Of a stretch of DNA of 64,000 nt, positions 21,127 to 22,353 are shown piece after piece (the first letter of the stretch is position 1; each line of letters begins with the position of its first letter). The position numbers and the translations under genes were made by a program. The notes under the pieces were generated by a model. That model was given only the letters and a program-made list of their open reading frames with translations, was not told the DNA's origin and searched no databases. Source of the stretch: Escherichia coli (lineage in GTDB: Bacteria > Pseudomonadota > Gammaproteobacteria > Enterobacterales > Enterobacteriaceae); assembly GCF_041886205.1 (NCBI RefSeq), contig NZ_CP169029.1. One strand, written 5' to 3'.

Positions 21127-21516
21127 ATGAAATATAATACGATGAATAACAACGAAATTATTTTATCTCTATGTGCACGCATTAAAGAAACGCGGATCTC
21201 CTTATCATTGACCCAGCAGCAGTTAGCCGATCGTGCATTGGTGGGCATTGCAACGGTCAAGCGGATTGAAAAGGGAGGAAGTTTAAATCTTGATACCCTC
21301 ATTTCTATTCTGCGCGCGCTGAATAAATTGCAAAATCTCGATGCCATATTGTTCGAAGCAGAAATGCGTAATTTCAATGAAAATACTTCCAGCGGCGAAG
21401 GGGCAGGGCGACTTCAGGTGCGCCAGCAACTGACAGATTTAAACCAGAAGTCTCCAGCCCCGCACGCAGATGACCGTGATTTTAGTACGGTGCTGGAAAA
21501 TACCTTTTGCTGGTGA
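21127..21516 (+). CDS. XRE-family HTH transcriptional regulator, accessory
   Basis: HTH LSLTQQQLADRALVGIATVKRIEKGG; ATG is 1 nt after the dehydratase stop, implying an operon. Start placed at the internal ATG 21127 (129 aa); the ORF track starts at 21082. Confidence 0.7.
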   Translation: MKYNTMNNNEIILSLCARIKETRISLSLTQQQLADRALVGIATVKRIEKGGSLNLDTLISILRALNKLQNLDAILFEAEMRNFNENTSSGEGAGRLQVRQQLTDLNQKSPAPHADDRDFSTVLENTFCW

Positions 21517-22353
21517 TTATTCCTGTAAATACTGCGCATGGAAGCGCAGGTGATCCTCTATAAAAGAGGCGATGAAGTAGTAACTGTGATCATATCCCGG
21601 CTGAATACGCAGCGTCATCGGCCATGCTTTCTGGCGGGCGGCTTCTGCCAGAACTGCGGGTTGCAACTGGTCGGCAAGAAACTGATCATTATCACCTTGA
21701 TCGATAAGCGTCGGGATCGCATCCTGCGCGTTACTGGCATACATCAGCGCGCAACTGTCCCATTCCAGCCATGCATTTTTGTCCTCACCTAAATAGCGGC
21801 TAAACGCTTTGATCCCCCACGGGACGCTGCACGGATTCACAATGGGCGCAAAGGCGGAAACGCTGGTGTATTTGCCCGGGTTTTTCAGCGCCATAATCAG
21901 CGCACCGTGACCACCCATTGAATGACCGCTAATGGCGCAGCGGTCGCTGACATTAAATTGCGACTGAACCAGCGCCGGTAATTCATCGCGCAGATAATCA
22001 TACATCCGGTAATGCGTCGCCCACGGCGGTTGCGTGGCATTAAGATAAAAGCCTGCGCCTTGGCCTAAATCGTAGCCATCGTCGTTGGCAACCTGTTCGC
22101 CGCGCGGGCTGGTGTCTGGCATCACCAGTACAATCCCCAGTTCCGCCGCTACCCGCTGGGCACCCGCCTTGGTGGTGAAGTTCTCGTCATTGCAGGTTAA
22201 TCCGGAAAGCCAGTACAGCACTGGTGGCGGAGTGTGATCACGAGGTGGTGGGAGAAAGATACTGAACGTCATCGGGCAGTTTAAGGTACTGGAGTCGTGT
22301 CGCCAGCGTTGCTGCCAGCCTTCAAAACAGCGGTGCTCTTCGAGCATTTCCAT
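21517..22353 (-). CDS. yeiG: S-formylglutathione hydrolase / esterase D family
   Basis: 278-aa ORF starting [17 protein letters not shown] with the GHSMGGHGA serine-hydrolase motif. Confidence 0.9.

Follow-up and report, generated by a model that had tools for sequence, protein, structure and literature searches.

The genes for a small regulator of the XRE type and for the S-formylglutathione hydrolase YeiG converge in a 64,000-nucleotide stretch of Escherichia coli DNA (contig NZ_CP169029.1 of assembly GCF_041886205.1; hereafter the window), and their stop codons touch. The sequence across the junction reads TGC TGG TGA/TTA TTC CTG TAA ATA, with TGG TGA TTA at positions 21511-21519. The TGA at 21514-21516 closes the plus-strand helix-turn-helix (HTH) open reading frame (ORF), and the TTA at 21517-21519, read on the minus strand, is the TAA stop of yeiG, leaving a gap of 0 nt within 21514-21519. 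Over this region the source strain is 100% identical to strain wlxctx60, from which the RefSeq annotation was taken; in window coordinates it places the HTH coding sequence (CDS) at 21127-21516 and the yeiG CDS at 21517-22353, and RefSeq annotates both ends alike in seven independent E. coli genomes. Sequence, ORF list and RefSeq thus all confirm the contact between opposite-strand stops described in a first-pass annotation of the window. With a probability of about 0.78, the touching stops represent the native tail-to-tail boundary between yeiG and an old four-gene cluster, ending in the regulator gene, that has been deleted in most E. coli.

Genes at this locus run in the order lysP, cirA (plus strand), a transporter gene of the major facilitator superfamily (MFS; minus), a SerB-like phosphatase gene (minus), a serine dehydratase gene (plus), the regulator gene (plus), yeiG (minus), folE (plus) and yeiB (plus). 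The left-flank core gene, cirA, occupies 15282-17261 according to its ORF and the RefSeq annotation of the identical strain; the right-flank core gene, yeiG, encodes a protein scoring 393 bits to TIGR02821 (cutoff 281.7). Between these two, the MFS transporter (17320-18642, minus) is of the organophosphate:phosphate antiporter type, UhpC/PgtP/GlpT-like (Pfam MFS_1, 158 bits); the SerB-like phosphoserine phosphatase (HAD-IB; 18675-19562, minus) scores 208 bits to TIGR00338 serB, where the cutoff is 144; and the dehydratase (19773-21125, plus) is a single-chain L-serine ammonia-lyase of the Fe-S type (TIGR00720, 545 bits, cutoff 345; Pfam SDH_beta and SDH_alpha). The regulator gene is the last of its operon and begins, with the RefSeq start, 1 nt past the dehydratase stop. 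Its product, 129 amino acids (aa) long, matches Pfam HTH_3 over residues 19-66 with 37.7 bits (cutoff 23), and its orthologues in Citrobacter, Salmonella and Scandinavium, at 66-97% identity, keep a conserved C-terminal W and end ...LENT(L/F)xW.

Gaps for the ten annotated convergent gene pairs of the window are -20, 0, 38, 40, 55, 58, 70, 126, 129 and 372 nt. The second pair with a gap of zero or less is yohO/yehW, convergent with a 20-nt overlap at 56350-56369. The E. coli reference genome contains 75 overlapping convergent gene pairs (PMC4161906). Since convergent neighbours in E. coli often touch or overlap, the zero gap by itself is not remarkable, and it is no pointer to an insertion.

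A profile scan with the regulator over GTDB species representatives returned 20 loci. The same four genes, in the same order and orientation, lie beside yeiG-folE-yeiB in Escherichia whittamii, Salmonella arizonae, Salmonella diarizonae and nine species of Citrobacter, with cirA on the far side of the cluster in E. whittamii, both Salmonella and Citrobacter sp. 18056. The junction is TGA/TTA or TGA/TCA, with a gap of 0, in E. whittamii, eight Citrobacter species and all Escherichia that carry the cluster. For Salmonella and Citrobacter sp. 18056, the yeiG stop has been lost, and the reading frame runs on across the complement of TGG TGA and closes at a TAA within the regulator gene, producing a 12-nt overlap; S. 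enterica subsp. enterica has this Salmonella arrangement as well. Some S. enterica have a regulator of only 118 aa, owing to a TAC-to-TAA nonsense change (L043:3340-3357). The gap is never positive, and it is this conservation, 0 or an overlap in every one of some 20 genomes from three genera, that exceeds chance.

Presence of the cluster within the species was counted over 5,426 complete E. coli genomes. A query comprising the cluster plus its flanks was covered to at least 80% in 86 of the 5,426, and essentially all others matched the flanks only. With the cluster alone as query, 89 genomes were hit, 85 of them at full length, each copy being exactly 4,223 bp, chromosomal and single, for a frequency in E. 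coli of about 1.6%. That the junction is the edge of a strain-specific block, as the first-pass annotation held, is borne out by these counts in the form of a presence/absence polymorphism. Six further E. coli cluster alleles are 94.8-99.5% identical to that of the window, all with zero gap, and alleles within the species differ by up to 5.2%. Signs of decay were seen in several copies: IS1 insertions in two E. coli (NZ_AP027963.1 and NZ_CP172867.1), and a frameshifted serine dehydratase in strain 90-3040 (L028:5480-6833).

The empty site was defined from the cluster-free strain F070 by base-by-base extension from both flanks. F070 has 31 bp between cirA and yeiG. On the left, identity with the window extends to 17278, and on the right it starts again at 21525, 8 nt inside yeiG; cluster-free E. 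coli have nothing identical to 17279-21524, 4,246 bp for which their empty site has the 22 bp AACCGGGCGGACTTTCACTTCA. Judged by homology, however, the true insertion/deletion (indel) seems to extend from about 17293/17296 to 21516, with 21517-21525 being a diverged yeiG tail. Of 14 other, diverse E. coli, 13 have the identical 31-bp spacer and one, strain 103, has a 30-bp variant, 1 nt shorter, with a TAA stop; all these empty sites appear to be a single deletion allele. E. coli ESBLEC_HM50 (NZ_CM132641.1) has a larger, different deletion at the same site, in which truncated cirA and yeiG pseudogenes are fused.

The variable tail of yeiG, its stop plus last two codons, occupies 21517-21525 (minus strand) and encodes QE-stop in the window. 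Cluster-free E. coli and Citrobacter have LK-stop, E. whittamii has RE-stop and strain Z226-1 has QK-stop. The comparison of YeiG C-termini proposed by the first-pass annotation therefore gives ...YLQE with the cluster versus ...YLLK without it. Between the window yeiG and the F070 allele, 11 of 837 nt differ, and four of the 11 fall in the terminal 9 nt. The empty-site tail, TCACTTCAG (LK-stop), has all nine nucleotides identical to those of cluster-bearing Citrobacter. Known tails can be arranged in a series of single substitutions whose intermediates occur in living genomes: TCACTTCAG; TTACTTCAG, carried by E. coli 103 and C. portucalensis; TTATTTCAG, by Citrobacter FP75; TTATTTCTG, by E. 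coli Z226-1; TTATTCCTG, by the window; and TTATTCCCG, by E. whittamii. Because the tail of cluster-free E. coli matches that of Citrobacter, LK-stop is probably ancestral; and because that Citrobacter tail sits next to an intact cluster, the empty site would be the derived, deleted state. We conclude from the series that the last 9 nt of yeiG are most simply seen as homologous but diverged and tightly linked to the indel, rather than as an insertion scar, which would place the real indel boundary at the outer edge of the yeiG stop codon. TIGR02821, the YeiG family model, aligns residues 2-275 only, leaving the variable last residues outside it, and a weakly constrained YeiG tail would fit a model that ends there. 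A 306-aa YeiG (P0050) was considered as a possible stop-loss extension into the regulator gene and rejected, its extra length being an internal 28-aa tandem duplication; the duplication in this E. coli variant spans the active-site GHSMGG motif.

Polarity of the indel was examined through divergence, base composition and signs of mobility. Synonymous divergence (dS) from the window for cluster versus flanks is 0.06-0.10 versus 0.04-0.12 in E. coli GF4-3, 0.16-0.22 versus 0.08-0.52 in E. coli 2013C-4282, and 0.24-0.56 versus 0.27-0.65 in E. whittamii, while both are saturated against Salmonella and Citrobacter. In each of these Escherichia comparisons, synonymous divergence of the cluster goes with that of the core genes beside it. 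The Escherichia copies of the cluster are closest to one another, with no incongruence with the flanks. The GC content of the cluster is lower than that of its flanks in every genus, Salmonella and Citrobacter included, and any acquisition must therefore be older than the split of these genera. No target-site duplication, nor any terminal direct or inverted repeat, pairs 17279-17296 with 21510-21525, either by repeat search or in the base-level comparison with the empty site; the duplication that the first-pass annotation proposed to look for is lacking at either breakpoint on alignment with an islet-free strain. Convincing microhomology, in the form of bases shared by the two breakpoints of a deletion, was not found either. 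A Pfam scan of the four cluster proteins returned MFS_1, HAD, SDH_alpha/beta and HTH_3 only, with no integrase or transposase, and the neighbours are cirA and yeiG; no tRNA or tmRNA gene occurs in the window at 12000-26000. The plasmid collection held no genuine copy, its matches being Salmonella chromosomal fragments that carry fghA, and neither did the phage collection, where matches were unannotated contigs of 1.4-2 kb plus larger records matching only sda/sdaA, 10-13% of the query. Salmonella "plasmid" records with the cluster and fghA include 300-500 kb "single cell" entries at one end and a 9.8-kb entry from serovar Quebec at the other; they appear to be misfiled chromosomal fragments.

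On its far side the cluster is bordered by a double hairpin at 17269-17317, between the convergent cirA and MFS genes, with arms at 17269-17278/17286-17295 followed by 17300-17305/17312-17317. It folds at -28 kcal/mol (z -3.7 on the plus strand, -4.9 on the minus strand), is the only terminator-like structure bordering the cluster, and is present in all cluster-bearing Escherichia. The empty site keeps the left arm in a shortened stem, GCCCGG-cgaa-CCGGGC (-16.7 kcal/mol), followed by the 6 nt GGACTT. The cirA-proximal hairpin that the first-pass annotation regarded as retained is real, then, and is both stronger than described there and longer than in cluster-free strains. The same annotation saw no room for a terminator at the regulator/yeiG junction; none fits or was detected there, and there is no terminator-like site within about 500 nt. 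An Rfam scan of 15000-24000 at E<=1 gave no match, the plus-strand fold downstream of the regulator stop is not significant (z -1.3), and RNAalifold found only a weak consensus at the junction on both strands, -13.0 and -6.9 kcal/mol.

A candidate hairpin in the yeiG sense, 14 interrupted base pairs, lies at 21447-21495 (minus strand), 22-70 nt past the yeiG stop and within the last 25 codons of the regulator gene. It folds at -21.8 kcal/mol with z -2.65, and none of 200 shuffles was as stable. The fold was repeated in other genomes, nine in all, and most of them have a hairpin at the equivalent place, with z from -1.0 to -3.4; it is strongest in Salmonella (-34.8 kcal/mol, z -3.4), where a U-rich stretch follows, while two Citrobacter reach only about z -1 and the minimum free energy fold of Citrobacter sp. 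18056 lacks it. Coding constraint may explain its conservation. A conserved terminator at the junction was rejected as evidence, given the weak consensus folds and the lack of covariation support, and is kept as a hypothesis; the hairpin may act as a pause or termination element. Stretches that are C-rich and G-poor occur 225-300 nt past each stop and could load Rho. Since there is no intergenic DNA, each transcription unit must end inside the CDS of the other gene. It would do so by Rho-dependent termination, by head-on collision of polymerases or at the weak yeiG-sense hairpin, and each unit would run tens to hundreds of nucleotides into the other before any of these took effect. Convergent read-through of each transcript into the other gene, predicted by the first-pass annotation, is plausible, and the yeiG and regulator mRNAs probably have complementary 3' ends.

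Taken together, these results suggest that the junction is probably ancestral and that the common E. coli state is probably a deletion. The cluster would already have occupied the interval between cirA and yeiG when Escherichia, Salmonella and Citrobacter separated. A haplotype lacking the four genes would then have been inherited by most E. coli, or acquired by them through recombination, the deletion running from just past the cirA terminator hairpin to the outer edge of the yeiG stop codon and leaving the 31-bp spacer with its shortened hairpin. The strain of the window would have escaped the deletion, or homologous exchange in the flanks would have brought the cluster back, and the 8-nt difference at the end of yeiG would have built up through ordinary substitution, the tail being unconstrained and in tight linkage with the indel.

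Several observations weigh against this reconstruction. The GC content of the cluster, 38-47% as against 51-55% in the flanks, is what would be seen in acquired DNA. Four differences in the 9 nt of the tail are far above the approximately 1% found over the rest of yeiG, and a breakpoint inside yeiG would explain those differences equally well. Among the Escherichia representatives in the profile scan only E. whittamii scored, and an ancestral cluster therefore needs an old deletion or several losses, although the S. enterica representative went undetected in that scan too, which makes negatives of the scan weak evidence. Searches with YeiG protein, together with a look-up of FolE contigs, aimed at the locus in E. 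albertii, E. fergusonii, E. marmotae and E. ruysiae, returned only E. coli-labelled, cluster-free loci. No source was found for the GGACTT of the empty site, the filler GGCGGACTTTCACTTCAG having no match in the window at up to three mismatches. Finally, the yeiG-sense hairpin gains no support from covariation: its inner stem is invariant, and 182-235 of 500 shuffles match the observed values on all measures.

An earlier view, that illegitimate recombination or a mobile element brought a foreign islet into a previously empty spacer between cirA and yeiG and replaced the last two codons and stop of yeiG, now seems very improbable. It would account for the fact that identity with cluster-free strains ends 8 nt inside yeiG where the C-terminus differs, for the low GC of the cluster, and for its restriction to about 1.6% of E. 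coli. It is largely refuted, however, by the cross-genus synteny, with the same junction in three genera; it also has against it a cluster dS equal to that of the flanks, the lack of target-site duplication, inverted repeat, integrase, tRNA and real plasmid or phage copies, and the identity of the empty-site yeiG tail to that of cluster-bearing Citrobacter. Of the insertion endpoint that the first-pass annotation saw where yeiG ends, an indel boundary stands, with identity stopping at 21524/21525 and the tail changed; the proposed polarity and mechanism fall, in view of the missing mobility signatures, the synteny, the matching dS and the LK-stop tail in Citrobacter. Hardly conceivable is an artefact of annotation, in which one of the two ORFs truly ends earlier and a normal spacer is present. 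The C-terminal half of the regulator does lack a Pfam domain, and some Salmonella have the truncated 118-aa form, but the C-terminal ...LENTLxW is kept in 17 homologues down to 66% identity, YeiG has 278 aa with and without the cluster, and RefSeq ends are identical in the seven independent E. coli genomes.

The recent history of the window strain leaves a further alternative, compatible with an ancestral junction and a deletion in most E. coli, from which it differs only in that history: E. coli lost the cluster early, and about 1.6% of strains regained it from other cluster-bearing Escherichia by crossovers in cirA/lysP and yeiG/folE, the junction arriving ready-made from the donor. We regard this as possible, at somewhat below even odds. 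The window yeiG is a typical E. coli allele up to its last 9 nt, as expected after recombination in the flanks, and the QE-stop/RE-stop form of the tail is shared with E. whittamii and not with cluster-free E. coli. The yeiG genes of 2013C-4282 and Z0117EC0005 (L026/L027:7224-8060) show 68-82 differences in 837 nt (dS about 0.5) to any of the other E. coli alleles compared, a distance approaching that of E. whittamii, and may be part of an introgressed block; lysP of these two strains is only 95.4% identical to that of the window. On the other side, between E. coli and E. whittamii the cluster has diverged as much as its flanks (dS about 0.5), so that E. whittamii itself is not the donor, and no donor lineage was found, YeiG protein searches giving only E. 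coli-labelled sequences. Unlikely, in our judgment, is a functional antisense coupling, in which selection would keep the gap from ever becoming positive and so link formaldehyde/glutathione-ester metabolism to serine catabolism. Read-through transcripts from yeiG would pair or interfere with the sda-regulator mRNA and the reverse; where the 3' ends overlap, antisense pairing or colliding polymerases would let constitutive yeiG transcription damp or time expression of the XRE regulator and the dehydratase; and the hairpin in the last 25 codons of the regulator would serve as the pause site. A gap of 0 or -12 in every genome examined from three genera, the missing terminator between yeiG and the regulator gene, and a layout that matches excludon type (b), convergent genes with no terminator between them (PMC7154746), are all in keeping with such a role. 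Yet conservation of the gap needs no selection, because without intergenic bases there is little to mutate and insertions must hit a single position; the yeiG stop has moved twice at no apparent cost, and most E. coli dispense with the arrangement.

The reading of the touching stops as a native boundary carries a corrective for annotation: a zero-base gap beside a strain-specific block looks like an insertion scar, and here it would be the ancestral arrangement. Tight tail-to-tail junctions need polarisation by an outgroup before they are read as breakpoints. Cluster-bearing and cluster-free strains also form a natural pair, in which yeiG has no terminator with the cluster and a hairpin terminator without it, and which could be used to study convergent termination in the absence of intergenic DNA.

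The cluster itself represents an uncharacterised, conserved module. Its transporter falls below all specific NCBIfam cutoffs (UhpC subfamily, 423 against 564; PgtP subfamily, 340 against 408; GlpT, 278 against 633), and by these scores it resembles the UhpC/PgtP/GlpT family while seemingly belonging to no named member. The divergent promoter region between phosphatase and dehydratase genes (19563-19772) is 210 bp long and AT-rich, with a GC content of about 31%. Two copies of an operator-like repeat lie inside it, at 19657-19679 and 19696-19718 and 39 bp apart (direct repeat family D4), with the consensus AAAAGTAC(N)TTTTTGATA(C/T)CTT. Both copies are conserved in Salmonella and Citrobacter, as is a nearby motif, ATCACAG(A/T)TGTGAAT, and the repeats are candidate binding sites for the XRE regulator. 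The content of the cluster suggests a role in taking up and degrading phosphoserine or a related phosphoester. For the Salmonella genes STM2195-2198 and for this gene combination, a literature search found no functional study, only an entry in a Tn-seq table, which lists STM2195 as a putative DNA-binding protein without a K-12 orthologue (PMC3487940). Distant homologues of the regulator, at 38-49% identity, are convergent to an L-serine dehydratase gene (about 51%) in Mangrovibacter, Leminorella, Budvicia, Limnobaculum and Gilliamella; pairing of regulator and dehydratase appears to be wider than this cluster and to reach other Enterobacterales. Elsewhere in the window, a degradation cluster for 3-hydroxybenzoate/gentisate occupies about 35654-41665, from dusC to yohJ, and includes a LysR regulator, mhbT, gtdA, an FAH-family hydrolase, maiA and a 3-hydroxybenzoate 6-monooxygenase. 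We take this cluster to be absent from K-12.

Comparison with known systems places the locus among several types. It is like genomic islands and integrative elements in that its GC lies below that of the flanks and its distribution within E. coli is patchy, but unlike them it has no integrase, att repeats, tRNA target or mobile copies, and it is syntenic across genera and diverges together with its flanks. Salmonella STM2195-STM2198 is the orthologous cluster, in the same chromosomal position next to yeiG/fghA; it differs in having 66-92% protein identity and a yeiG of 285 aa that overlaps the regulator gene by 12 nt. For the ends of transcription, collision-assisted bidirectional termination offers a fitting framework (bioRxiv 10.1101/2022.10.23.513370). 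The bidirectional terminators of Ju et al. 2019, as characterised in that citing preprint, resemble the GC-rich hairpins between convergent genes at cirA/MFS and at the cirA/yeiG empty site, whereas the yeiG/regulator junction has no intergenic hairpin, and a pausing element there would lie in coding sequence. Excludons and overlapping 3' untranslated regions, as reviewed by Toledo-Arana and Lasa (PMC7154746), likewise involve convergent units without a terminator, for which complementary 3' ends are predicted here, but the excludon is defined by overlapping transcripts and reciprocal regulation, and the yeiG/regulator pair is known from its sequence. Abutting or overlapping convergent pairs, such as those of the E. 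coli reference genome (PMC4161906) and arfA/mscL (PMC10070815), are alike in form, in that their 3' ends meet or overlap and are altered by movement of stop codons; here, such movement takes the gap from 0 in Escherichia/Citrobacter to the 12-nt overlap of Salmonella after loss of the yeiG stop. A regulatory antisense interaction has been reported for arfA/mscL, while the present pair is described from genome sequences only. What sets the yeiG/regulator pair apart from other overlapping convergent pairs is that it is polymorphic within E. coli, with one partner deleted in most strains.

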